Positions 11,201-64,000 of a DNA stretch of 64,000 nucleotides are shown here, in pieces. The stretch is from Eledone cirrhosa (lineage: Eukaryota). The stretch lies in contig OZ024743.1 in the NCBI GenBank assembly GCA_964016885.1, positions 70,990,001 to 71,054,000 on the forward strand, read 5' to 3'. Within the stretch, counting starts at the first letter, position 1; every line of letters begins with the position of its first letter. The notes under the pieces are model-generated. The model was not told the origin of the DNA. It did no database searches and worked only from the letters and a program-made list of their open reading frames with translations. The position numbers and the translations under genes were made by a program.

Positions 11201-11340
11201 AGTCACTCTTATTATTTGTCTTCAGAGGGCGGTGGATTTGGATTGGCAGTATTAGTAGAGTGTCGGACGCCATGCTTTCTAGCATAGAGTTACGGCCCTT
11301 TATGATATGAGTTCAAATCCCGCCGAAGTTAGCTTTGTCT

Positions 11341-11540
11341 NNNNNNNNNNNNNNNNNNNNNNNNNNNNNNNNNNNNNNNNNNNNNNNNNNNNNNNNNNNN
11401 NNNNNNNNNNNNNNNNNNNNNNNNNNNNNNNNNNNNNNNNNNNNNNNNNNNNNNNNNNNNNNNNNNNNNNNNNNNNNNNNNNNNNNNNNNNNNNNNNNNN
11501 NNNNNNNNNNNNNNNNNNNNNNNNNNNNNNNNNNNNNNNN
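11341..11540. other. assembly gap (200 N)
   Basis: run of n; left edge ends inside a SINE. Confidence 1.
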
Positions 11541-16829: not shown

Positions 16830-18030
16830 CTACTGACTGTAGGTTTCGCTATGTACATAGGCAAGGCGGGTTTTCTGTATTACTGCGTAGTGCCAAAGAT
16901 CTCGGTCCAGTGACATTGTCTTAGAGAGGTGTAAGTGTGTAAGGTCAGAATTTATCAAATCGTCCCAGGTTTTTCTGGGTCTGCCTACTCCGTAACTTTC
17001 GTCAATTTTGATCGCCCTGCACTTTTTTATACAGCTGTCGTCTTTGATGCGCATGACGTGACCATACCAATGTAGTCTTCTCTCGAGTAAACAGCATCTT
17101 ATCCCTATTATACCTAATTTCTCACTTAGTTCATTTATACTTTGCCGTTCACGTATATTACTATTACACATCCAGCGGAGCATGCATGCTTCGTTCCTCT
17201 CCAGTCTACGCAGGTCCTCTGCACACAATGCCCAAGTCTCATTGCCATGTAACATAACTGTTCGTATGCAGGCATCATACAGTCTGCCTTTCCTTTTTAG
17301 AGAGAAACCTTTAGCGGCCAATAGTGGTATGAGCTCTCTGAACTTTTTCCATCCTGTTCTGACTCTTGCTACTGTACTTTCTGAGCACCCTCCACCACTG
17401 CTGATTTTGTCACCCAGGTAACGGAAGGTGTCCACTATTTCTATAGAGCCATCTTGGCAATAGGAGCTTGCATCCTGTGGGCACTTGCTACTTATTGCAC
17501 CTGAGCACCAGCCACATATAAAATCTACGTTAGATAGCTTACCTGTGATCCCACTACATCTTTTATGCACCCATACTTTGCATTTGGGACATAAAATGGA
17601 ATTTCTGCCTACTCCTTTCCTACACACTGAGCATGATCATTTCCCAGAGGGGACCAGTGCTCTATTTTCCTTCCGACATACTAGAACTTTAGTCTTAGAC
17701 AAGTTAACTTTAAGGAATTTCTTCTCTAGTTCAGCCATCGATTCAGCTATGAGCGTTAGATCATCTGCATAGAGATGTTCCCATGGGCAGCCGGTTTTGA
17801 ACTCCTCTGTTATAGCCTGAAGGGCAATAATAAATAGGAGGGGGCTAAGGACAGAGCCCTGATGAACACAAATTTTTACGCTAAATTCTTCACTATATTC
17901 GTTGTTAATTCTAACCTTGCTGACTTTCTTTATACATGACTTGTATAGCTCTCACAAGCCATTCATCAACCCCTAGTTTTCTAAGGGCCCACCAGATAAT
18001 GGTGCAGGGGACTCTGTCAAATGCTTTGAA
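16830..18030 (-). mobile_element. RTE-clade LINE, 5'-truncated and degenerate (RT plus PHD-like finger plus C-terminus)
   Basis: minus-strand KAFDRVP, HQGSVLSPLLF, LYADDL, FRYLG, RLHWYGHVMR, GRPRKTW; stops and frameshifts. Confidence 0.92.
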
Positions 18031-32134: not shown

Positions 32135-34260
32135 GGTTAGTCAGGAAGGATGAGAATAAGGGGGATGACATAAGCAACTTCCGGCCCATAACTCTGCTAA
32201 ACACAGAGTTACAGATTTTGGCCAAGGTGTTGGCAAAGAGGCTGGCGCTTGTCATCGAAAACCTGGTGGGAGAAGCGCAGACATGCGCAATCCCGACCAG
32301 GTCCATACATGACAACCTCCACCTCATGTGATACATCATAGAGAGGGTAGGGTGTAAACCCGGCTTCGGTGGTGCCCTGATCAACTTGAATCAGTCTAAG
32401 GCTTTCAATAGGGTTGACCATCGTTACCTGGATGCGGTGCTTGAGGCAGCAGGCTTCGGACCCGTGTTCAGGGGCTGGATTGCTACAATGCACAGCAGCA
32501 ACATCTGCTCAAGGGTCAAGGTGAACAGCTACCTCTCGGAGCCGTTCCATATCACGCGATCCATCTGACAGGGATGCCCCCTCTCCTCCCTTCTGTATGT
32601 ACTGACTCTCGAGCCACTACTGCAGAGGTTGGAGCTATTGCAGGGGATCCCTTTGGAACTGGGACTGCGTCAGAGTAATGGTGTCGAGCACCTCGCAAAT
32701 CGGGGAGGTCGGCACCTTACTGGAAGAATACAAAAGGTTCACAGGAGCGAAGCTGAACCGGGACAAATCCGTCGGTTTGCAACTCAGAATGTGGAGAGGC
32801 AAACCGATGCTTTCCGGTGGCGTCGTCGGGCGCTGGACAGAAGGACCGGTAAAGCTGCTCAGGGTCTGGTTTGGTCCGGACCTCCAGGTGGAGAAGAACT
32901 GGAATGAGGTGACGGCCAAGGTGTTTGCACTCACCCAGAAGTGGGCCGAGTGCAAACTATCCTTGAAAGGTCGAGCGGAGGTGGCGAACACTTTTATAGC
33001 GTTCGTCATCTACTACCGCTTGAGCGTCGTGCCTTGTCCAGCCAAAACGCTCACCAAAATAGAGCACACACTCTTCCAATTCCTTTGGAAGAAACGGGCT
33101 CCTTTGGTGAGTAGATCCATCTGCTGCCAACACCTTTCCAACGAAGGGCTGAGGATGCCGTGGCTGATGATGCGCAAACACGCGCTCAGGCTGCGGCACC
33201 TCCACATATTCCTCACCGGACAACCGGTGTGGGCCCCGTTTGTGAGGCGAGCCTTCCCATGACTCGTCTCGCTGACCGAGCTGCAGTCCTGGGTCAAGCA
33301 AAGACCGAGGAAAATGGGCGACTGGCACATCGAATGTGCTCAGGTGCTCACAGCCCTCTGGCAGGCGAACCCGGCGATCAGTGGAGACTCCACTTCGACA
33401 TTCTATAGAGGGTTGGTCCGCAGCAAGTGCGACGAAGCACTCGGAGAAACTCTAGGCATAGAGGAGGACGAACTGGCCAGTCTGTTCAGTAGGACCTTCC
33501 GCCTGGGACCAATAGACAACTTCCAAAAATCCCTGGCCTGGCAGTGCTACCAAGGAGCTCTACCAGTTCGAGACAAGCTCTACAGACACGGGTGCCGGGG
33601 CAGGGGCCCTTCGAAAAAGATCTGTCCGAGATGCGTGCGTGACGAGGAAACCGTCGCGCATGCATTTGTACACTGCCTGGGCGTTACCGACCTGTGGGGC
33701 TATGTAGAACGACTATTGTCGCGGATGAGACCAATCCAGTTGACCACCGAGTCCATTGTCATGATCAAACCGCTACCCTCCTTCAAAAACGAAGGAGAGG
33801 CGGTTTTCCTATGTGTTATGGCTATGCTGAAAGAGGTTATACAGTGGACGAGGTTAAAAGGGCTGAGGTCAGACATATTTCTCTCCGGCGAGCAACTGAT
33901 TCGTTTTTTCAAATATCATTTTGGAAGAAGAATCAGGATGGAGAGAGAGGTGCTGTACCCCAGCAAATTTTATAAAAGGTGGGTGAATGTGGCAAAGATG
34001 GCCCGAGTGGTTGGGCCTTCTCTCTATATAAGCCTGTAGGTTGAGGAAAAAGAAGGGAGTACTTGCTCTTGGTGCTCCTGGAGATGAGGGTTGTACATTT
34101 TTTCGGAGTGTGTACAACCCCTGTGTAACGCCTCCCCCTATTGGGGATTTCAATTGTTATTTTTTATTTTATTAATAGTTTTATTTTCATATACCTGTAT
34201 GTAAACTCCCCATTTGTATTTGTCCCCTTCTTTTGTGCGCTTGTGGCTAATAAAAAATTT
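32135..34260 (+). mobile_element. L1/Tx1-clade LINE, 5'-truncated and degenerate ORF2
   Basis: NFRPITLLNTE, KAFNRVDH, QGCPLS, C-terminal CPRC...ETVAHAFVHC knuckle; AATAAA at 3' end; in-frame stops. Confidence 0.92.
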
Positions 34261-47819: not shown

Positions 47820-47960
47820 CAGAAAGGAAAAATTCCATGAATTTGGCCAAAGCTATGCCTATACAAGATCCTTCTCCTCTTTTCCACCGCAACCTTTCTG
47901 GACGAGATACCTCATCTTATGGCAGTCTACCAATATCTGGGTCCGAAGAAGACCTTCCTG
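47820..47960 (+). CDS. FAT1: Fat-like protocadherin cytoplasmic exon (SERKNSMNL...SGSEEDLP)
   Basis: tag acceptor in phase 1 after pyrimidine tract, G|gtatgt donor; Ser/acidic stretch positioned like the segment before GYHWD in FAT1. Confidence 0.75.
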
Positions 47961-48595
47961 GTATGTTGAAATGCTTCCAATTTTTAAGGATCTGATATAA
48001 TATGATATAAAATATTTTTTTCTTGTTGTTGTTTGTCCACCTCTAATGACTTTGTTAACAACAGCAGTTAATTAATTAAGTTTAATGAAGCAAGGCAAAA
48101 ACAAAATGAGAAATAGAGAGATTTTTGTTGTTGCTGTTGTTGTATTCAGTCAGTGATTATTGTCTAGAATGACAACAACAACCAACACCAGTGATGACAT
48201 TTTGAGGTGTCTTGTTTTTCACTGTTTTAACATATAACCATTAACATCAATTAACAAAGATTATAATTGCATGTTGCCAAATTTGAGGCCAAAGTTATTA
48301 ATTAAAGACGGATAATAAATATATGATCTGAAGAGGCATCACTGCTCCCTTTTCTTAAATATATATATATATATATTATTTATTTATGTTCATACATAGA
48401 ACAAAAGGCTTTTGTTCCATGTATGAACATAAATAAATAATATATATGTCAGCTCTCATCTCAATTGAGCACTGTTTTCCTTTTCCTTTTTTCTTTTTTC
48501 ACACGGATGTTTTCAACATATATCTATCTATATATAGTTCAAGATGAAAATGAAAACAAACACTGAACAATTACACAGAGTTTTATTAGTTTCAA

Positions 48596-48656
<61 letters not shown>

Positions 48657-48740
48657 AAAGGTAAACAGAAATAACAACATAATCGGTACAGTATATGGAA
48701 TGGATATATTAGGTTAACGCTTGATATAGCAGGAAGAAGG

Positions 48741-48776
48741 TCTTAACGTTTCAGACGCTAGTCCTTCATCAGAAGA
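48741..48776 (-). ncRNA. minimal hammerhead ribozyme motif (Penelope type)
   Basis: minus strand TCTT-CTGATGA-A-GGAC-TAGC-GTCT-GAA-ACGT-T-AAGA. Confidence 0.65.
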
Positions 48777-50248
48777 AAGAATGAGAAATAAGATAGATTG
48801 AGGGGACGGGCAGGTTGGAATTGAAAAAAATGTCTTTAGATAAAAATAATAGGTCCATTCGTGTTAACATCTCTTGCAAAACATATATAGTTAAGGATTG
48901 TACTGGAAAGCCAGTACAATGCAAGTTAGAAATATGGGAGTGAAAAAACTAAATAAAGTAAGACAGGCAAAAGAGAACAACTGTTTACCGTTTTACCATA
49001 TATTTTATGATATTTCAAGGTTAGGACCCCTTTTTCAAAAGTGCCCATTGAAAGTCTGTGTGTATTTATATACACTATGGATTAATGTCAAAAGTGGGAA
49101 AGGAGATTGTCCAGTATTCGGTATTGCCAAAGCCAGAGAAATTTTCTGCTGTTCAAAATTTCAGCAATAAGAAAATTGCTCGATGTTTGACGGTATGACA
49201 TGAAAAGAAATATGTCCTTTCAAACAATAGATTAACTTTTACTGAGGAGATTTATGTCACAAAGAGAGACAAGGATTCTTGTGGTAAATGTTAAGTTTGC
49301 AATGGAACTATAAAATTTCGCTCTATTTATTTTAGAAAGGTGACTTATGAGAGCTGTTTGTTAACCCTTTCGATACCAAACCATATGAAACTGTGTGTCA
49401 TTGAGAAAGCTAAACAGGCCACAGTTTGTGGATGACTGCTTTAGACAATAGTATTCATCATTGTCCCCTTTTAATGTCCGCTTTCCCTGTTAGCAATAGA
49501 TTTTGAGTGGAGGAATATAGCTGATATGAATGTGAGCAGCAATTGGCAATGTGTGTGTGTATATAAATAACAGATAGAAGCTAGTATGGATGTCAAATTG
49601 GATCATAATTCGCTACACTACACACACATACAGTGTGTACATATACACATACTCACACATGTACATAGTAGAACATATTTATAGTGTATGCATACACATG
49701 CACACAGCAGTCAGTTACTAACCAGTGGTGGTTGTGTCTCATCCATCCATCTATTATTTACTAACACTAGGGTAGTTGATTGGCAGAATCATTAGAATAT
49801 GGGGCAAACGCATAGCAGCATTTGTTTCGATGCTTTACATTCTGAGTTCAAATCCTACCATAGTCAACTTCCTTTTCATCTTTTAGGGGTTGATAAGATA
49901 AAGTACTAGTCAAGTACTGGTGTTGATTTAATCAACTTACCCTCCCCCAAAATTGCTGGCTTTGTCCCTAAAGTAGAAATTATTATTTACTAACACCTCT
50001 CTCACTCCCTTTCTACATAAATATATATTTATACATATATATATATATTATATACATATACGTATATATATGTATATATATATATATATACTACATATAC
50101 ATATATATATATACTATATATACATATATATATATATACTACATATACATATATATATATATACTACATATACATATATATATATATACTACATATACAT
50201 ATATATATATACTACATATACACATATATATATATATATATATACTAC

Positions 50249-50304
<56 letters not shown>

Positions 50305-50378
50305 TATACTACTTATATATATATATGCACTATATATATACTATACTACATATATATATATATGCACTACATATATAC

Positions 50379-50418
<40 letters not shown>

Positions 50419-51220
50419 TATATATACATGCGTATATATATATGTGTATTTATATAAATATGTCATTGCTTGCTGCTGTGAATTAACAAAGCGATTATCA
50501 TTAAATATAAATATTAACAATATTAATAATAACAACAATCACATTAGTCTAATATTCCCTAACATTGCCTGCCATGTTTGTTTTCATGTCTACCTACTCA
50601 TCTACCATTCTTTTACAGGGGATATTTCCAGAATCTTCTCTGTCTCTCATGCCTATTGGTAAAAACAAACCGATCAATAACACATTATTTATTTATTAAG
50701 TATCAATTATAGCACTAATTCTAATAATTGTCATTCTTTTTGTATTTATTATTATCATCAATATTATTATTATTATTATTGACAGTATCAGTTGAGCGTC
50801 GGACAACATGCTTTGCAGCATGTAGTTACGGCTCTTTATATTTTGAGTTCAAATCCCACCAAGGTTAACTTTGCCTTTCATCCTTACGGGGTCGATAAAA
50901 TAAAGTACCAGTCACGCACTGGGGTCGATTTAATCGACTTTCCTCTCCCCAAATTGCTGGCCTTGTGCCTATAGTAGAAACCATTATTATTATTATCATT
51001 ATTATTATTATTTTTAGATTGGCAGTATCGGTAGAGCATCAGACACCATGCTTTGCAGCATGGAGTTACGGCCCTTTACGTACTGAGTTCAAATCCCACC
51101 AAGGTTAACTCTGCCTTTCATCCTTGCAGGATCGATAAAATAAAGTACCAGTAATTTACTGGAGTCAATTTAATTAACTTTTCCCCTCAGAAACCTTTAT
51201 TATTATTAATATTATTATTA

Positions 51221-51570
51221 TGGGACTTTGAGATCAAGATCACACAAAAAGTCCATCACAACCGTTCTGATGTTGTAAAAACAGACGACTCCCTAAAATC
51301 AACTCTAATTGATATTGTGGTCCCTCAAGACGACAAAAGATCAGTAAGTATGCAGACCTTGCTGGCAATATTAGAACTGATCACCATGTAGAGACAGGAG
51401 TTGTGCCAATCATCATTGGAGCAGTAGGCATGGTCCCTAAACATCTTATGCCTCTCATCAAAGGCCTTGGGATACCCAACTTCATAGGCAGTGCCCAAAT
51501 TTCTACCTTCACCAGGACTGCCAGAATCCTACGTTATGTATTGACCATCTCAGATCAGGGACTGACCTGA
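51221..51570 (+). mobile_element. R4/Dong-type LINE 3' fragment (restriction-like endonuclease)
   Basis: WDFEIK..HNRSDVV..LIDIVVP..KYADL..VVPIIIGAVGMVPK across a frameshift; preceded by (TTA)n. Confidence 0.75.
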
Positions 51571-52293
51571 GGTCAATTAACACCCAGCACCTCCTCCTCC
51601 TCTTCCTCCTCCTTGGACCTAAATCAGAAACCATTATTGTATAGCCTTGTGGATTGGCAGTATCAGTAGAGGGTCTGATGCCATGCTTTGCAACAAAGTT
51701 ACGGACCTTTATGGTCTGAGTTTAAATCCCGCCGAGATTAACTTTGCCTTTCATCCTTACGGAGTCGATAAAATAAAGTACCAGTAATACACTGGGATAA
51801 TTGCTGGCCTTGTGCCAAAAGTAGAAACAATTATTGTATAGCCTTATCAGATACTTCTAGATAGATACCAATAGATATATAATTACCTATACTACACAAC
51901 AATCCATTCTCGTATTCCATCCATTCTCTCATTCCATCCATACAGTCCATTCTCTCATTCCTATCATTCCCTCATTCCACTGGGCCCTTGTTGTCTAGTT
52001 TTATTCTTCATTCAGAGAGGAACAGTGATCACCTTCTTAAATATCTGGACATCTGGATCACAATATCTCTATATAAACAATAACCAGGCATCTGGAAATC
52101 TCCAGATCCCAATATCCTGGCATCTGGATACTCAAGATCACAATATCCAGACATATAGATATCTCTTGATCAGCTATCCCTGCCTCTAGACATCTGATAG
52201 ATAATAACAACAACATTACTGGTAATAATAATAATGATATTTATTTATTTACTTTATAGTTAATTCAAAACTGTTATAAATTATATATGCAAT

Positions 52294-52335
<42 letters not shown>

Positions 52336-52910
52336 GTGATTTATTCATGTTCATACATGGAATAAAAATGCTACCTAAGGTTTCAAAGCCATACCTCTAA
52401 CAATGTTGAGGGATCAGAATTGTGACCTAATGTTCAGGTGCTATATATATATATATATATAAGCTTTCAATTATACATATTTTTTAAATTGTTAATTGAA
52501 AGATACATATTTATAAATAAATTTAAACAAATTTTTAAAGGATTTAGGTAAAAAAAGAAAGAAAAAGAATTATGTATTATTTTGTTTAATTTTGTATTGT
52601 ACACAAACCATAAAAAGGTACTCAATACCTTCGAGGTGTGTATGATATGAATGTGCAATTTTTTTTTTTTTTAATGTGTCAGATAAACAGGATTACGTTA
52701 ATATTCCTAGGATTTCATTTGATATTTTAATCATCTGAACTTGTCAGCAGATTATTAAGATGGATTTCTTCTCACTCTTCTAACATGTTCTTTGATTAAA
52801 ATGACCAATATTATGAAACCATAGTCCTCTGAATATGTAACCCTGCTTACTTTCCATATGGAACATATATACATATACCCACACATATATATATTATATA
52901 TACATTTATA

Positions 52911-52951
<41 letters not shown>

Positions 52952-52979
52952 GCATATATGTAAGTATATGTATATATAC

Positions 52980-53095
<116 letters not shown>

Positions 53096-53331
53096 TTATG
53101 TATATAGATATATAAATGAAATTTAAATAAACAAAAGAAAATACCCACCATATTTTTTTTTAAAAGGCGAAAATGTTTCCCCACTGAAATAACAGGGGTT
53201 GTGGAACTGTTAAAAGCTGGTGTTGTCACCTTAGTTCTGTGAGTATTAACTATGTGGATGTGGCATACATATAAATATATATCTATATATATAAGTTTTT
53301 GTTTTTTTTAAATATATATATATATATATTC

Positions 53332-53395
<64 letters not shown>

Positions 53396-55632
53396 TATAT
53401 AATAAAAAGCTGCTGCCCTTAACCTTTGTCCTCCACCTTGTGGTTTTTCCTGGTCTTGTGTAATTGTCACATCACACTCTGCCCTTAACTCTCCATACAA
53501 CAATAGTTACTATCATTACTATTACTACTACTAGTACAATTGTATCAGTTAACCAACCAACCAATCAACCAACCAACCAACCAAACTCCTCTTCCTTTCC
53601 CTCCCACAAACATCTGTTTGACCTGGGTCTCTTTCCTTCTCACCTTAGTACTACTTCTTCAGTAGCCATATTTAGTCTCTAGTCTGTTCTCTAAAACCTA
53701 CTAGTGTATAGGTGTGTGTATTTCTTCTCGTAGTGATGTGAGAATGAGGGTGAGAACAAAGATGGAGGAACAGATGGTAGTGGTGTCCTTGGTGGTGGCC
53801 ATGGTGGTATTAGCAGTGAGAGAATGAAGATATTCCAATTGTGTTCCTCCATTGTACCCACCCTCTCTCTCTCTCATCCTGGTTATGTTAGTATAAATCT
53901 TTAGTTGTACCTCACTGGTTTGTGTTGTGTTCTGTTTAGTAGTTTTTCAGAGATGAGGGTCTTTTGATTTTTAATTTTCATCATACTGGTGGTGGTGGTG
54001 GTGGTGGTGGTGGTGGTCCTTGCATCTTGATTGTTTTTTGCATCTCCAACTTCCTTCCCTTAATAACCACAACCTCACCCTCACACATACACTTACCCAC
54101 CACCCCATTGAAGTGTTACATTTGGGTTGGAAGGATTATACACCTGACTCCATAGCATTTCCCACTTCACCTGACTCCTGCACACACATACATACATATA
54201 CAACCACATCATAAAAATATACACAAACAACTCCACATGCAAACACATACACACTTCAGCACCTAACCCCGTGCCCGCTCCATATGCACCACATCACAGC
54301 TTCTCCACCATTCTAGACACACCTGAACTTCAATACACACACACATATATACATAAACACACACATATGTCAGTCTGTATTCATCCCTTTCCCATGTCAC
54401 GCTGGATTGCTGCATTTCCTGTTGTTTCCATAGTAACCACCTACACAAGTTTGCCATGAACACCATCCCTGTTGTACTGATGGCCTGCATGTAAACACAC
54501 AGGCACCTGTGCATGCATGTCTCCAACATACACAAACAAACATATACTTACATACAAAACCCCTATTGGTGTTGTGGAAATCCAACTTTATAGACACACC
54601 ATAAATGTACACAAAAATATATACACACTGGGTCATATAAGATTCCGTACCCTTTGAAAAAAAATTTAATATTTTATAAAAAATCAGTGTTTGTAAATTG
54701 ATCACAACAATTCTATATTTGAGACATATTAAGGTTATATTGATAGGAAATATTAGACCATTACCAATGATCAATTAAATGTAAATAAAACAAATTATTT
54801 AAGAAATACAAAAAAAATATTGAGTTCCAAAAAATTGATTTAGAATATTGAGTTCCAAAGAATTGCCTGTATATACTTAACTGCATGATTTTTGTTGGTT
54901 AACACTGTCTCAAAACGATTTTTCTATGACAAAACAAGCATCCCACATTGATTAGCTGGTATTGTTTACCATTCTTCTTCACAAATTTCCTTTAAATCAT
55001 CATTTAATATACATTTTGATTAATTTATTTGAATTAAATTATATATTACATTTTCTTGTTTCTTTGATTAGAAAAAGGGACAAAAGAAAGTGTCCTTAAC
55101 TTCTGCAATTGTAAAAGAAGCTGTCCTGAAGCACAGCATGTTTAAGCATTTAAAACATGGTACAGTTTATCCCTCTCCAGGTCTATTTCTTGGATTATGT
55201 ATCAAATTTCTGTTGCTTTTTTTTCTTATAAATTCATTATTTTCACATACGACTTCAGTAAACCCAACATCTTCACCAACCATGCTGAGAAAAATGAACA
55301 TTTTTAGGTGACTCGTTCTAGATTGACCTTCAGATCTTTCCATGAATTCTCAATTGGATTAAGATCTGGAGACTGACTGGGTCACTCAACAACATTAATT
55401 TCATTTCATTCCAACCCTGTTTTTTTAGTTTTGTGTGCTGTGACTTTTGAATTATTGTCTTAAGACACCCAGTAGATCACCAACACTAATAAAACTCTTT
55501 ACTCTAATACTGCAAATTTTCACAATAATCAGTCCATTAGTAAAGATGCTATAAACATTTAAATCAACAAAATATTTAGATATTTTCTGCAAAATCATTA
55601 CAGCATGTTAATAGCTGATATTATAATACATA

Positions 55633-55973
55633 TGGAAGCACATGGCTTAGTGGTTAGAGCATTGGCCTTGCAATCGAAAGGTTGTGAGTTCAATTCTCAG
55701 ACCGGGTGATGTGTTGTTTCCTTGAGCAAGACACTTTATTTCACATTGCTCCAGTTTACTCAGCTGTAGAAATGAGATGATAAGGACTGGGGTCCCTATC
55801 AATCCACTGCAAAGTGGTCGTGGAGGTGCCATGGCAAAAAAGCACCCAGCACTCACTGTAAATGAGGTTGGTGTTAGGAAAGGCATCCAGCTGTAGAAAT
55901 CAAGCCAGAATCAGTTCCCGTCCCACCCTTGCAAGCAGGGAAAAAGCGGACGTAAAATGAAATGATGATGATG
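55633..55973 (+). mobile_element. SINE family B copy
   Basis: near-identical to 8171-8508. Confidence 0.9.
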
Positions 55974-56424
55974 ACTGAGCATTTTAGAACATTGAACTAT
56001 ATAGAGAGCTTGCTATAACCTTTCCATATCTTATAGTCTTTGAAAATATTATTCCTGTCTTCTAAAGAATGTTTTCTTCAGCAACATGTTGAAGATATTG
56101 GATTTGATAATAATGAATCGGTAATAGGAAAAAAAAAACCCAAAACAACATAAATTAGATATTTAATTAAAGAAATTATAGAAATGCAATATGTAAATGA
56201 ATTCAAATAAGTTAATTAAAATGTATATTAAATGATAATTTTTAATATATTCATGTTAAAGTATGGACGCTTTTGTCACTCAATTCTTTTTAATTTCTCA
56301 AATAATTTGCTGAATTTAGAGTTTTGATCTTTGGTAAAAATGTTATAACTGCAAGCAACATAAACTTACTATATATCAAATGTCTAACTGTTGTATTAAA
56401 TTTACAGATATATGTATGTGCGTT

Positions 56425-56464
<40 letters not shown>

Positions 56465-56797
56465 GGGAAAAAGTATGACTCCGACGGCAGAATTACATAT
56501 ATTTATTACATATGTAGCATATATATATATATAATCATCTTATCATCATTTTATGTTTGTTTTCCATGCTGTCATGGATTATATATGTCTGTGTGTAATA
56601 TATATATATATAACATATAATATGTATATATTTATATATATATATATTTATAATCATCATCATTTAATGTACATTCATCTATGCTGGCCTGTGTTTGACA
56701 AGTCATCACAGACCAAGTCATTACCTACTGTCCTCCTCCCAATATATATATATATATGTGTGTGTGTATGTGTATAAATATACATATGTGTGTGTGT

Positions 56798-56878
<81 letters not shown>

Positions 56879-57920
56879 CATAAATGCAGAGGAATTGAGA
56901 CATTCTCAAGAAATTAAGTTGCTATGGTGTTCATTTCTGTTCTTTCTATATTTCAATTAGGTTTACATAGTTACATGATCCTTATTATATGGAAAACCCT
57001 TCATCAGGTGTAATCATAAAGTAATAAATATGTTGTCGTGATTCCATTACAACCTAAAAATAACTCCCACCTGGATTAATTATTAACACTTTGAATATAA
57101 TTTGTTTTCTCTTTCTTTCACTCACCATTCACTATTAGGTTATATAAATTCATTTATCTCAATTCTATTTTATTGACGAAGGTGGCAGAATGTTTTATTA
57201 ATTATTATTGATGGGCAGAATCATTAGTGCTTTAGACAAAGTGTCCTGCAGTTTTTGTCCAAATTCTGCTGGGATCACGCACTAGTATTGATTAAATTGA
57301 CTGTTACCCTTCCATAAAATGTTCTAACCTTGTGTCTAAATTAAAAGGGTTGGATGCCATGCTTTGCAGCATAGAGTTACGGCCCTTTGCGGTCTGAGTT
57401 CAAATCCCGTCGAGGTTAACTTTACCTTTCATCCTTACAGGGGTCGATAAAATAAAGCACTGGGGTAATTGCTGGCCTTGTGTCAAAAGTAGAAACAATT
57501 ATTATTATTATTGTCGTTATTATTTTTGTTGTTATTATTACTGTTATTTTTATCATTGTTATTATTAATGTTATTATTATTATTATCATTATTATTATTA
57601 TTATTATTACTATTGATGATGTTGATATTATGAAAGGTGCTGACTTCATAAAACGGTTGGTGTGAGACAGAACGCTTTATTTATTCTCGCTTTTTACATT
57701 ATGAGTTCAAATCCCACCAAGGTCAAATTTGACTTTCATCCTTCCAGGTTTGAAAAAAAAAATCAAGTACCAATCAAATACTGGGTTCAATTTAATCAAC
57801 TTATCCCTTCCAAACCCCCATGAGGATTATGATGTTGATGAAGTTGTTGATGATGATGATGATAAAATATGTTGAATGTAAATACTTGTCTCCTCTTATT
57901 TTTGAATTCATAGATGTAAG

Positions 57921-57989
<69 letters not shown>

Positions 57990-58307
57990 AATGTAACATG
58001 CAGTTACTGTAGGTTCACCTGAGTGACAAGTCGCTGCATAAGTTTCCAATCTGTAAAGAGGTGTAGAACTAAGCAGAGAGTAATTATAATAATAAAAGGG
58101 CGATTTGTTATGTCTTCATTACGTTTATTGAGTAGTGAAGCACGTTTCGCTATTGATCAGCTCAAGGTTCGAGCTGTATCTATCTAGCCCGACTCTGGAA
58201 TCAAAAGCTCATCAGATCTGCTGTGGTAATGACATTCTGTCAGATCAAACCTTGAGCTGATCAATAGTGAAACATGTGTCACAAAGACATAACAAATCGT
58301 CCTTTTT

Positions 58308-58371
<64 letters not shown>

Positions 58372-58964
58372 TATATTTTATTACATTGTGTATATTTCCG
58401 TTCTTTCTATATTTTAATTAGGTTTACATAGTTATGTAATCCTTATTATATGCACAGCCATTAGATGTAATCATAAAATAATTTTCTAATCTCATTATCC
58501 TGCATGGCCAAGTTTATCCTTTACTTTATCTTTTCAGGCTCCTTTAAAATATTAACAAGGGTTAATTAATTTTATTGTACCCTTGTCTCTCTCTCACACT
58601 ACTAACATTTGTGGCTCTAGGGCCATATTTTGTTTTTGTCATCTTATTTTCTATCAAACACTGTGTAGCCCCACCCCAACATACTTGACCCTGCAGTATT
58701 AGTCATTTTAATGTCCCAAATTGTGGCCAAAATTACTATTATTCCTTTCATCCTTACAAGGTCAATAAAACAAAGCACCAGTAATGCACTGGGGTAATTG
58801 CTGGTCTTGTGCCTAAAGTAGAAACTTTATCATCTTTAATATATTTTATTATTATATTATTATAATTATTACTATTATTTTTATTATTCTACTTTTCAAT
58901 TTTCAGGCATAGTGTTAGTTTTCAAAATATTTTGTATTTTAAGCTGTATGGTTGTATCTCTCTA

Positions 58965-59011
<47 letters not shown>

Positions 59012-59049
59012 TGAATATATGTATGCATATACATTGTATACATTGTATA

Positions 59050-59107
<58 letters not shown>

Positions 59108-59545
59108 TGTGAATATATCTATGTATATACATTATATTCATACATACATATACAATATATATATATATATGTGTGCGCGTGTGTGTGTGTGTATCTATGT
59201 ATGTATGTGTGTGTGTGTTCATGTTTCTGAAGTCACAACAATGCAGATGGGGTTGTAGATATTGAGGTGTGACAAACAGTTAAGCAAAATATGACTAAAT
59301 TAATGAAAATTAAAAATGAACAAGAAATGAGAAATTTTGTTACGTTTATAATTGCAATAATTCATGATATATTTCGGATTTATTGGCCAAAAGACAGTTG
59401 TCAGCAAAGGTAACAAATCTCTCATTTCTTTTTTCTTTTTTTCTTCATTCAAGTCATGATACCTTACATATTGTTACCTCAATATTTACAACCCAGTCTG
59501 CACTTTTTATATTCTACACTGCTTGAAGCAATGTTCTATGCACAG

Positions 59546-59584
<39 letters not shown>

Positions 59585-59714
59585 TTCTCTCTCTCTCTCT
59601 CCATACAGATATTGATATATATGTGTGTGTGTATGAATGTTACATATATTATATATATGTATATATTATCTTTTATTTTGTTACTAGTTCCAGTCATTAG
59701 ACTATATTATACAA

Positions 59715-59763
<49 letters not shown>

Positions 59764-59771
<8 letters not shown>

Positions 59772-60154
59772 TAAAAGGAATTCCAACTTTGTCTGATTTA
59801 CTCGTTTTATTTACAATCCTTTAAAATTTATAATGGTATTAGAATGAAATAGTATGGTTGAATATTAAATGTTAAGTGTTAATTGAACAAGTACTTTCAT
59901 GCTTTCGCAATCTTCAGGTTCATATTGTGTAGTGACAGTCAAGTTTGCAATTTTCAACAGTTGAAAATTGCAAACTTGACTGTCACTACACAATATGAAC
60001 CTGAAGATTGCGAAAGCATGAAAGTACTTGTTCAATTAACACTTAACATTTAATATTCAACCATACTATTTCATTCTAATACCATTATAAATTTTAAAGG
60101 ATTGTAAATAAAACGAGTAAATCAGACAAAGTTGGAATTCCTTTTATTAATATA
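59764..60154. repeat. perfect palindrome, 195-bp arms, 1-nt spacer
   Basis: arms read as reverse complements around a59959; abuts (TA)n. Confidence 0.95.
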
Positions 60155-60200
60155 ATCTTCTATACCCAATCATACACACCCGTGTATATTTATCTATCTT

Positions 60201-60232
<32 letters not shown>

Positions 60233-60447
60233 AGAAAAGCTAGGTTTCACATTATGGTCTTTATTAATTATACATAGTTACAACCGTTTCACAGATGGAT
60301 AGTTGAGGATCTATATTATAATCAATAACGACCGTAATGTGAAACAGCACTTTCTTTTCAATATATACTCTCTCCCTTAGCATAGAGTTCTTATCTTGGT
60401 ACCCACCTCGGTAAATCATGAATCTACTGAACTATCTATTATATATA

Positions 60448-60507
<60 letters not shown>

Positions 60508-60554
60508 TACGTATCAGCCATACTAAGAGTGAAAAATGAAATTTCATCTTTTTC

Positions 60555-60609
<55 letters not shown>

Positions 60610-60623
60610 CATATATATACATA

Positions 60624-60654
<31 letters not shown>

Positions 60655-61474
60655 GGCAAATAATGGGATGGAATATTAAAAATGGGTGTTATATTTTCCA
60701 CCCTCTAATTTAATTTTATTTTCAAATGTTCTGTGTCTCAAGAATATATGTTTTCTGCTCTGAACAGCTTCTCTATGTGTGTATTCTTTGCATGTATGTG
60801 TACAGTTTACATAAACTGGAATATAAGCTTACATCATTTCTTTAACAACTTTCTCCCCATCATCGTCACCACTAACACCATCATCATTATCATCATCATC
60901 ACCAACATGATCATGATCATCCTCATCGAAAATATGTATGGATGCATATATATATATATGCTAACTTTTTTGTTATATCTAGACTTTATTGTATGACGTT
61001 TTAAAACGATCGTTTGATTTTCAGGTTTTGGAAACAAAATATTTATTTTCAAATTGTTGATTTGTCCTTTTTGTGATAAATATCTTTCTATTTTCACTCA
61101 TTTTTAATTTTGTGTGCGTATATATGGGTTTCTGTATCTGTGTATGTTTATATGTGTTTGTATGTATTCACATGTGTATGAGTGTGTGCCACTATCTATG
61201 TGAATGCATGTTTATTGATTTTTATCAAGAAAATATCTAATATTAATTTATTTTTCATTTTTATTACATTCACACACAAACATACATGCATATATATAAT
61301 AATAATAAATACAAAGACCAAATCTGAAGAGGGCTCAATAAGGATTGTATATATATATATATATATAAATATAAACCAGTAGAGCAAATATTTATTATTA
61401 GTACTGATTAAAGTTTCAGAAGATCCCATATAGTGTGAAAGCAGAAATTCTTTGCTTAAACTTTAATCTGTACT

Positions 61475-61511
<37 letters not shown>

Positions 61512-62109
61512 CACACATATTTAATTTGGTCATGAATTGATTATAAATGCATTCACTCACAAGCATACATGCACACATACATATATGTAATAGATACATA
61601 CATACTTTCATATGGAATTTATATTGAGGATCTCACCCACATCATAAGCAGCTATTCAAAGATGTCATCAGGATACTATCACCATATGATGCATTGATGT
61701 AGTGGCCAAAACACTATACAATGCAATCTTTAGAAAGGATTGTCCTGAAGAGAAAATATTAAAAGTTACAATGATGTTGAGGGCTTACTCACACATGTGA
61801 AAAAGTACTGCTAGAATGTTCCAGTCAAAACCCCAATAAAATTCAAACATAACAGACCCGATATAGTCATATGGGATGGATAAAAGGAGGCTTGCACAAT
61901 AGTGGAAATCTGGTGAATAAAAAACACAGACCTGCAGATACAATGATATCCACAACTGTACATATACACACTTGCAGACAGATACACATAATTACTTAGG
62001 TGATGTCTAAATTCCAATGAAAGGGCCTTGTTTCTGGGTTAGAAATTGACTCTCTCTATTGATGAGAAATTAAAAAAAAATATAACCAGAACATAAATAC
62101 ATACACATT

Positions 62110-62113
<4 letters not shown>

Positions 62114-62156
<43 letters not shown>

Positions 62157-62516
62157 TACATACATACATACATACATACATACATACATACATACATACA
62201 TACATACATACATACATACATACATACATACATACATACATACATACATACATACATACATACATACATACATACATACATACATACATACATACATACA
62301 TACATACATACATACATACATACATACATACATACATACATACATACATACATACATACATACATACATACATACATACATACATACATACATACATACA
62401 TACATACATACATACATACATACATACATACATACATACATACATACATACATACATACATACATACATACATACATACATACATACATACATACATACA
62501 TACATACATACATACA

Positions 62517-62546
<30 letters not shown>
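62114..62546. repeat. (CT)n followed by about 100 perfect (CATA) units
   Basis: direct reading. Confidence 0.97.
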
Positions 62547-62547
<1 letters not shown>

Positions 62548-62829
62548 GGGATAACAAGTTATCGTTTCAGGTAATCAAATTAGAGGTTGTGAGTACTCTG
62601 TACTATGGATAGTTTTAACATCGAGTGATTAGCGGCCTTTAGACTCACCTGATCAATGAAACAATTGTTAATACTGTAAATAAAACCCTTTTTGTATAGC
62701 CGATCATGTTATTCTTCACTCTTTCACAACATATATATATATTTGCAAAAGTTCTATTTAAATTGTTGGGATACAACAAGCAAATATTTTTATAACTGAT
62801 ATAAAGCACTCGACAAGTATTTGGAGTAA

Positions 62830-63300
62830 ATATACAATATTAACAAATGGAAACTATATTTATAAAACCATATCTATTTTACTATACATATTTCAAGGAT
62901 ACCATGTTAAATTATGGTATGCTTTCATCAGACAAAATACAATATATACCAGTTTTATAAATAAATTTTGACATACCCTTTCAAAATGCAACCGTTACTT
63001 TTGGAAGACATCAGGGATATTGGATTTGTTTATCTTAGTAAGTCATTGTGTTATGGAGAAGGAAAAACCTTCTCCATAACACAATGACTTACTAAGATAA
63101 ACAAATCCAATATCCCTGATGTCTTCCAAAAGTAACGGTTGCATTTTGAAAGGGTATGTCAAAATTTATTTATAAAACTGGTATATATTGTATTTTGTCT
63201 GATGAAAGCATACCATAATTTAACATGGTATCCTTGAAATATGTATAGTAAAATAGATATGGTTTTATAAATATAGTTTCCATTTGTTAATATCGTATAT
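62830..63300. repeat. near-perfect palindrome, about 233-bp arms, AAAAA loop
   Basis: gagaagg-aaaaa-ccttctc centre at 63065; one mismatch seen near outer end; abuts (TA)n. Confidence 0.95.
63191..63255 (+). ncRNA. hammerhead ribozyme motif in right arm of long palindrome (mirror copy 62875-62939, minus)
   Basis: TATTTTGT-CTGATGA-AAGcATACCAT/ATGGTATcCTT-GAA-ATATGTAT-A-GTAAAATA; stem III quasi-palindromic with GU pairs. Confidence 0.6.
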
Positions 63301-63389
63301 ATATATATATATTTAGTTATGTAATAAACAACATAAGATAATTATTTCATTTATTTCATTTAAATATTTAATAAATACACTGTTTTTCA

Positions 63390-63450
63390 TTCATTCTGAC
63401 GACTGAAGACAGACACAGCATCTGTCTTCAAGAAACCACTGGTAAATGGA
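63390..63450 (+). ncRNA. type I hammerhead ribozyme motif
   Basis: TTCATT-CTGACGA-c-TGAAGACAGA/TCTGTCTTCA-a-GAA-ACCACTGGT-A-AATGGA: 6-bp stem I, 10-bp stem II, GUA cleavage triplet at 63442-63444. Confidence 0.75.
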
Positions 63451-63630
63451 ATAATTATCTTATGTTGTTTATTACATAACTAATAAGCTCTGTAGCCTAC
63501 ATATAGCACTCTTTTTTCCTGTACCTTTCTGACGGAAATACTTCATTTATATATATATAGAATAGAAAATGAAAAATCAGTGATGCATCTGAACTCAATT
63601 TATTGTGTGTTACAATTGTTTCCCCGGCAG

Positions 63631-63728
63631 ACAGCTCGAGACGCGATCATTGTGTGGATCTGTCTGATTCTGGACCCGCAGATTCGATGGACAGGCCTAA
63701 TGATTTAGGAACATATTCTCTCACTGGG
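63631..63728 (+). CDS. candidate further cytoplasmic exon (DSSRRDHCVDLSDSGPADSMDRPNDLGTYSLTG)
   Basis: ttgtttccccggcag acceptor, open in phase 1 from 47960, locally GC/CpG-rich; donor gtatat is weak. Confidence 0.35.
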
Positions 63729-64000
63729 GTATATATATATATATACATACATACATCTGTATGTGATATACACACATTCACCTGAAGAATCTAAACTTTT
63801 CCATTGTTCAATTCATTGATATATATCCTGTATCTATAACTATCTGGCTGTCATGGAGTGGCAGAGAGTCATAAGCCTGCCAAACCCTCAGGCAAAAGGA
63901 AAGAATTTTTGTCAGTATGATATGTGGGTGGGCTACATTTTTGGCAATCAAATCTATAAAGCAATTCTGAAATATTTTAGTAAAATAGTGTATGTGTGTA

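Follow-up and report, generated by a model that had tools for sequence, protein, structure and literature searches.

Does a hammerhead ribozyme motif that shares a strand with a long competing hairpin, deep in an intron of a Fat-like gene, amount to a switch on that gene? The question is raised by 64,000 nucleotides of the Eledone cirrhosa genome (assembly GCA_964016885.1, contig OZ024743.1, positions 70,990,001 to 71,054,000 of the forward strand), hereafter the window. The original prediction took the hairpin arm to be a built-in regulatory helix and the ribozyme to be a potential influence on pre-mRNA processing. With a probability of about 0.9, the segment 63313-63546 is instead a truncated Penelope-like terminal-repeat insertion lying sense in the intron, and it carries its hammerhead as a likely inert passenger, since by prediction the inverted piece ties up the cleavage site in a 41-bp duplex. 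This reading draws on the repeat family, its link to an RT/GIY-YIG ORF with Hydra-type motifs, the (TA)n flanks, the one-sided tail, the inverted partner, and an intron placed by homology.

The hammerhead motif and its competing arm

Direct reading places a type I hammerhead motif at 63390-63450 on the plus strand, with CUGANGA, GAAA and an NUH triplet in order and helices I, II and III around them. The core consists of CUGACGA (63396-63402), GAAA (63432-63435) and GUA (63442-63444), with a predicted cut after A63444. Stem II comprises 10 bp (63404-63413/63421-63430) above a mismatch of C63403 with A63431, stem I comprises 6 bp including one G.U (63390-63395/63445-63450), and stem III can pair A63435-C63437 with G63441-U63443 as 3 bp around an ACU loop in the monomer. 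Core, stems, triloop and the C.A mismatch had all been claimed from the start and are all found by direct reading. The motif is real: a hammerhead descriptor gave a single match in the window and none across 200 doublet shuffles. An Rfam scan contained no hammerhead, either at gathering level (0 matches) or among the 27 matches at E<=10; the miRNA-family matches in the same scan were discarded, as they merely reflect a neighbouring 236-bp palindrome. An AATAAA hexamer, a possible poly(A) signal common to most sibling copies, precedes the ribozyme at 63370-63375 on the plus strand.

Stem III (63435-63443, plus strand) is a 9-nt near-palindrome of the dimer type. Duplex energy and dimer fold predictions make it a putative double-hammerhead interface: two paired copies would form 4+4 bp around a central C.C, with a predicted duplex energy of -8.2 kcal/mol, and no monomer hairpin is predicted for stem III alone. 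For two copies of the motif a double hammerhead is the predicted fold, at -40.2 kcal/mol vs -31.2 kcal/mol for two monomers.

The competing arm, 63313-63353, is complementary to 63443-63483 save for one difference at G63449, a G.U in the RNA. The 41-bp helix expected from the original prediction is therefore present, sharing the 3' strand of stem I, and folding predictions bear out that ribozyme and hairpin are mutually exclusive. The region of arm and hammerhead folds with z = -11.2, and none of 200 shuffles was as good.

A dispersed insertion and its parent element

The hammerhead motif is genuine, yet it is not special to the Fat-intron locus. Against the 3.0-Gb genome, the query 63355-63500 gave 47 matches among the 40 scored of 1945 candidates, with full-length matches at 92-96% identity. 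An exact 18-mer over the core and stem II occurs 762 times genome-wide (reversed control, 0), and a clade-wide motif pattern 10,153 times (control, 1), a count in which some loci figure twice because stem II holds a second CTGAAGA. Sibling copies end at a common 3' boundary, beyond which lies (TA)n or (CA)n. No published account of this family's ribozyme was found in the literature covered, which was mostly open-access and did not include Repbase.

The layout of the insertion is composite. Between a (TA)n tract at 63296-63311, the target microsatellite, and a second at 63548-63559 lie three parts in order. The first is an inverted, tail-less pLTR piece (63313-63353, minus strand), the reverse complement of 63443-63483, whose outer end is the tail-less end of the family. 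It is followed by a 10-nt inversion junction (63354-63363), in which the arm's final 9 nt recur. The third part, 63364-63546 on the plus strand, reads as the 5'-truncated direct pLTR of a Penelope-like element (PLE), with 92-96% identity to its best matches in the genome and 79% identity to the pLTR from an intact tandem unit. Its last 63 nt (63484-63546, plus strand) form a one-sided insertion tail, as indicated by the bimodal ends of family copies, which fall at 63482-63484 in 16 and at 63544-63546 in 36 of 63 hit ends.

Sibling loci, gathered by similarity search or by the exact 18-mer, numbered 49, or 42 once 7 overlaps and duplicates had been dropped. A head-to-head inverted pair is present at 20 of the 42, and 22 are without an inverted partner; in 17 of the 20 the motif is complete and the inverted piece spans the 3' strand of its stem I. 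By hand count, 13 of the 20 pairs combine an end at 63482-63484 with an end at 63544-63546, and the window copy matches this geometry exactly, with a direct copy to 63546 and an inverted piece to 63483. An inverted 5'-truncated copy beside a direct one, as at the window locus and these 20 siblings, is characteristic of EN+ PLEs, as is a tail at one insertion end only, although the tail here is 63 nt and not 30-40. Inverted 5' copies and one-sided tails are described for PLEs in the available text of PMC8557442, and in an Anolis element two internal sites at which reverse transcription begins were identified as the source of the tail (PMC11167929, available text). Because the inverted arm is the default insertion geometry and the one-sided tail is known from PLEs, the helix needs no selective explanation. 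The proposed regulatory helix thus gives way to a stereotyped insertion product that is predicted to close almost as soon as stem I is transcribed, likely a routine insertion scar and not a switch controlling the Fat gene. The head-to-tail tandem units of a few hundred nt typical of a non-LTR retrozyme, a non-autonomous hammerhead repeat, are not seen; there is a single direct copy with an inverted piece and no second direct copy in the 104 kb searched.

Published PLE work suggests how such a structure may arise. Element RNA would be reverse transcribed from one of two internal starts at an AT-rich nick, the long start giving the direct copy with its tail (to 63546) and the short start the inverted tail-less copy (to 63483), both truncated at their 5' ends.

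The parent element emerges from loci where the repeat adjoins coding sequence. Among the first 19 other loci, L004 and L005, which nearly duplicate each other, adjoin an ORF fragment; a search with this fragment gave 70,310 candidates, of which 150 were scored. Locus L051 contains 4310-bp tandem units with a 714-aa ORF and a related pLTR 261 nt 5' of it; 63364-63546 aligns over its full length (79%) just 5' of this ORF, the insertion tail ending ~118 nt ahead of the first ATG. L062 presents, all in one orientation, the end of the ORF, then a 3' UTR rich in microsatellites and finally a window-subfamily hammerhead (92.6%), with an inverted copy on its 5' side, and the order is the same in L055 and L056. 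In the partial tandems of L051, L052 and L062, as in EN+ PLEs, the repeat is a pLTR flanking a single ORF with RT and C-terminal GIY-YIG domains, both recognised by motif and by Atlas look-alikes.

Sequence searches of Pfam and PDB left the proteins P0001 and P0013 unrecognised, so the RT/GIY-YIG assignment rests on motifs and Atlas look-alikes. The look-alike clusters, from ctenophores, cnidarians, arthropods and molluscs, include GIY-YIG or RVT_1 in 18-77% of members (6 of 10 clusters listed), and the parent ORF has 1507 homologues, nearly all unnamed. Read by eye, the parent protein carries YRDD and a VVYEA...YVG endonuclease signature. P0013 has RWK at 41, DKT at 118, a CxCX5C linker at 559, CxxC at 662 and CxH near 693, a GIY-YIG core without cysteines and no CCHH in the endonuclease. 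According to the available text of PMC8557442, RWK, DKT, CxCX5C, CxxC and CxH are the diagnostic Hydra-clade set, and insertion in (TA)n likewise agrees with this clade. The GAAACCACTGGT motif of the present family's clade had 0 matches in the available part of the supplement of PMC8557442; the Hydra-clade placement is by motifs and not by identity to a named family. Judged from its sequence, 63364-63546 is the 5'-truncated pLTR of a Penelope-like retroelement with Hydra-clade motifs.

Among 23 relatives chosen for diversity, picked by core pattern and mutually related, 91.7% of cells are paired and compensatory change is seen at 10 of 20 pairs; no shuffle in 500 was as good, and slid controls were 35-55% paired. 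Because the rows are core-selected and related and stem III is invariant, this covariation supports stems I and II only, and in the element lineage only. A separate pair tally, in which 7 of 69 rows were mis-anchored, enters none of the counts. Across 24 similarity-selected matches, core positions vary less than the rest of the pLTR (3/322 vs 67/2742, raw counts to which no weight is given). The C.A at the helix II base is subfamily-wide, occurring in 23 of 23 close copies, and the 23 relatives have U-A in 11, other standard pairs in 2 and no pair in 10. The G10.1-C11.1 pair, highly conserved though not obligatory in published PLE hammerheads as far as the available accounts go, is lacking in both sets. 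Many of the compensatory pairs come from a divergent subfamily (L129:1488-1567) whose helix II is much longer and whose stem III contains CUCUG. In the parent element, two tandem pLTRs might pair through the palindromic stem III as a double hammerhead, perhaps with help from the element's protein.

Some sister subfamilies have a second hammerhead 300-400 nt past the ORF stop, 83% identical and with GUG for GUA (L051:8386-8455, also L041, L045-L048, L052, L106 and L107); it was not seen in L062, L064 or L065. The triplet is GUG in 11 of 11 ORF-proximal motifs and GUA in 11 of 11 distal ones, and GUG motifs number 693 genome-wide. The GUG copy has a weaker stem II, and a G at position 17 would be expected to block cleavage. 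One could imagine an asymmetric double hammerhead in which the GUG motif lends its core, stays uncut and cuts the pLTR site once per unit, intronic copies being cut in trans likewise. This idea is doubtful: when the GUG and GUA motifs of L051 were cofolded, a double hammerhead was not the best fold. Whether the core of the duplicate is conserved was put to an unconditioned test, but microsatellite matches dominated and it yielded nothing either way. A silenced, decaying duplicate is the simpler reading and explains the GUG copy as well.

Other hammerhead-bearing repeats lie nearby. An insertion of a second repeat family occupies 62731-63303, and both its own sequence and its relatives identify it as a 236-bp inverted pair of PLE-type architecture with a hammerhead on each strand (63199, plus; 62931, minus) and a 96-nt one-sided tail (62731-62826). 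This second hammerhead family sits 200 nt upstream of the 63390-63450 motif. The palindrome is 99% perfect and the family is younger (best copies 99%, 1631 candidates); its tail, whole or in part, accompanies it at 22 of 28 loci, and no parent ORF was tied to it in these 28. In a sense transcript the inverted pair would make a long duplex and thus a possible RNA-editing substrate. The same Fat intron also contains, at window-equivalent 85503 (minus) and 85604 (plus), within locus L166, a head-to-head pair of hammerhead-like motifs from a fourth family with relatives in L031, L047, L059 and L061. A CTGACGA-stem-GAAA motif is found in an earlier Fat intron (28479, plus), with near-identical motifs at window-equivalent 103933 (minus) and in L060.

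Fate of the ribozyme in the Fat-like intron

Homology places the end of the preceding Fat-like coding exons at 47960 and the start of the last exon at window-equivalent 92494. Both flanking junctions are phase 1, and the joined product EEDLPG-YHWDTSDW is continuous as in the homologues, which include a gastropod protein. The hammerhead therefore lies sense within a 44.5-kb last intron, which occupies 47961-64000 of the window (plus strand) and runs on to window-equivalent 92493. Sense orientation within an intron had been part of the original prediction and is confirmed, and the Fat-like pre-mRNA should traverse the hammerhead because the last coding exon lies beyond it.

The exon proposed about 180 nt downstream fares differently. 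Its coordinates, 63631-63728, fall within a third dispersed repeat (63560-63730; 40 scored of 2698 candidates, best matches 94-95%), and it finds no support among 11 Fat-like proteins. It would also shift the frame, since 98 nt, entered in phase 1 and left in phase 0, would come between exons that already join in phase 1. The candidate was accordingly rejected. The third repeat often occurs in inverted pairs too, abutting (TA)n. Elsewhere in the gene, a run of N (an assembly gap at ~11340-11540, 200 N in 104 kb) lies beside a Fat coding exon, and Fat introns hold fragments that by eye resemble two kinds of LINE-type reverse transcriptase (16833-17951, minus; ~32200-33970, plus).

Could a passenger of this kind nevertheless cut an occasional transcript? 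With the same insertion origin, a few nascent Fat transcripts might be cleaved at 63444 before the arm closes, or in trans via stem III, as a side effect that was not selected. The intact core, the predicted stability of the double-hammerhead dimer and the abundance of family motifs (10,153) speak for such leakage. So does the record of a PLE hammerhead that cleaves with protein help: the Anolis ribozyme needed the element's protein for cleavage, although in vitro insertion could proceed without the ribozyme (PMC11167929, available text). Predictions of equilibrium secondary structure with ViennaRNA, which ignore Mg2+, tertiary contacts, proteins and kinetics, give an active fraction of 1.1e-2 for 63385-63455 and 2e-8 for 63310-63485, which includes the arm. 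In a growing transcript, the predicted active fraction is 4e-3 with the 3' end at 63450, where stem I is just complete and arm pairing stands at 0.40, but arm pairing reaches 0.97 six nucleotides later, at 63456.

The window copy also appears slightly decayed. It departs from the column majority at 63388, 63418, 63449 and 63504, and the locus-specific C63388 and G63449 are predicted to favour a stem I shifted by 4 nt, so that stem I is out of register in the predicted dimer. The predicted active fraction is 0.015 for the window copy, vs 0.21-0.24 for three siblings and 0.054 for L051. The change at 63449 seems to have followed insertion, because the arm retains the family base opposite it. No second direct copy that could serve as dimer partner exists in 104 kb that include the whole last intron and leave out the Fat gene 5' of the window. 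Precedent weighs on the same side: metazoan PLE hammerheads are inactive as monomers and weak as dimers according to the available text of PMC4209133, and 8 of 9 Xenopus retrozyme dimers remained uncleaved (bioRxiv 10.64898/2026.07.22.740005). Leaky cleavage is thus improbable. Of the suggestion that cleavage could affect pre-mRNA processing, the premise that the transcript extends this far is supported, but an effect on splicing finds no footing, with the arm winning early, no dimer partner in 104 kb and a candidate exon that is a repeat.

Less probable still is that the host has domesticated the locus, with the alternative hairpin regulating whether the Fat pre-mRNA is cleaved or whether a nearby exon is used. 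The sense orientation in an intron and the mutually exclusive folds invite this view, and conserved intronic hammerheads in RECK and other genes offer a precedent (PMC6155905, available text). Yet the arm is default insertion geometry, the copy differs from its siblings by a few percent with changes that weaken stem I, the two states are predicted to lie some eight orders of magnitude apart with no trigger in view, and the exon to be controlled is a repeat that is not frame-neutral. At the window locus, nothing beyond position favours a domesticated switch. Finally, that the inverted arm and the neighbouring palindrome are assembly or fold-back artefacts, as the 99% perfection of the latter and the 200 N might suggest, is highly improbable: the arm differs from its partner at 63449 and stops at the family-specific tail-less end, and the geometry of one tailed and one tail-less copy recurs at many loci in two families and is known for PLEs (PMC8557442, available text). 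Three contig sets from a single sample match the repeats alone, with no piece across the locus, and carry no weight either way; a look-up of sequencing runs listed no RNA run with the sequence, which has no bearing on expression.

Taken together, the folding predictions and the insertion geometry make the window hammerhead most likely an inert fossil, the slightly decayed stub of a Penelope-type element. Here the motif would have no partner, the arm would out-compete it during transcription, and C63388 and G63449 would slide stem I by 4 nt. For the Fat gene the stub is most likely without consequence. The apparent anti-ribozyme helix arises automatically from Penelope-type inversion, and for this reason copy number should be checked before such a helix in a PLE-rich genome is taken for a switch. 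With its roughly 10,000 motifs, intact ORFs, non-canonical helix II base and, in some subfamilies, a GUG duplicate, the family offers a usable system for the function of PLE hammerheads.

Relation to known elements and ribozymes

The closest counterpart is the Hydra clade of C-terminal-endonuclease PLEs (Craig et al. 2021, PMC8557442). As far as the available text describes it, this clade has in common with the present element RWK, DKT, CxCX5C, CxxC and CxH, a cysteine-free GIY-YIG core, (TA)n targets, a pLTR hammerhead, partial tandems, an inverted 5' copy and a one-sided tail. The unit here is larger, at 4.3 kb with a 2-kb microsatellite-rich 3' UTR, whereas Hydra-clade elements are generally <3 kb, and the tail is 63 nt in place of the published 30-40 bp. 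The available part of the supplement lists Hydra-1_Obim from Octopus bimaculoides, 2507 bp in length, with its pLTR undefined. Poseidon PAc of Anolis carolinensis (Frangieh et al. 2024, PMC11167929, available text) likewise has two preferred tail-defining copy ends, AT-rich targets and a pLTR hammerhead. However, it belongs to a different clade, its ribozyme overlaps the ORF start and its reverse transcription starts inside the ORF, while the tail in the cephalopod element ends before the first ATG.

Metazoan PLE hammerheads, as described in the available text of PMC4209133, resemble the window motif in being type I, with a long helix II, an extra nucleotide after A9 (CUGANGAH) and a palindromic, dimer-requiring helix III. 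Both also have flanks that are U-rich on the 5' side and AU-rich on the 3' side, occur mainly as single copies dispersed in the genome, and form head-to-head pairs 100-700 bp apart. The differences lie in the helices: the base of helix II is C.A (U-A in sister subfamilies) and not G10.1-C11.1, helix II has 10 bp and not 7-8, and helix III exceeds the minimal form in length, coming nearer to the D. virilis variant. The intronic hammerheads of amniotes in RECK, CTCL and DTNB (PMC6155905, available text) are again of type I, reside in introns of host genes and have an origin of retroelement type. Those ribozymes show cross-class conservation and canonical tertiary contacts; the window motif, in contrast, belongs as a young member to a high-copy family and by prediction is locked in a duplex.
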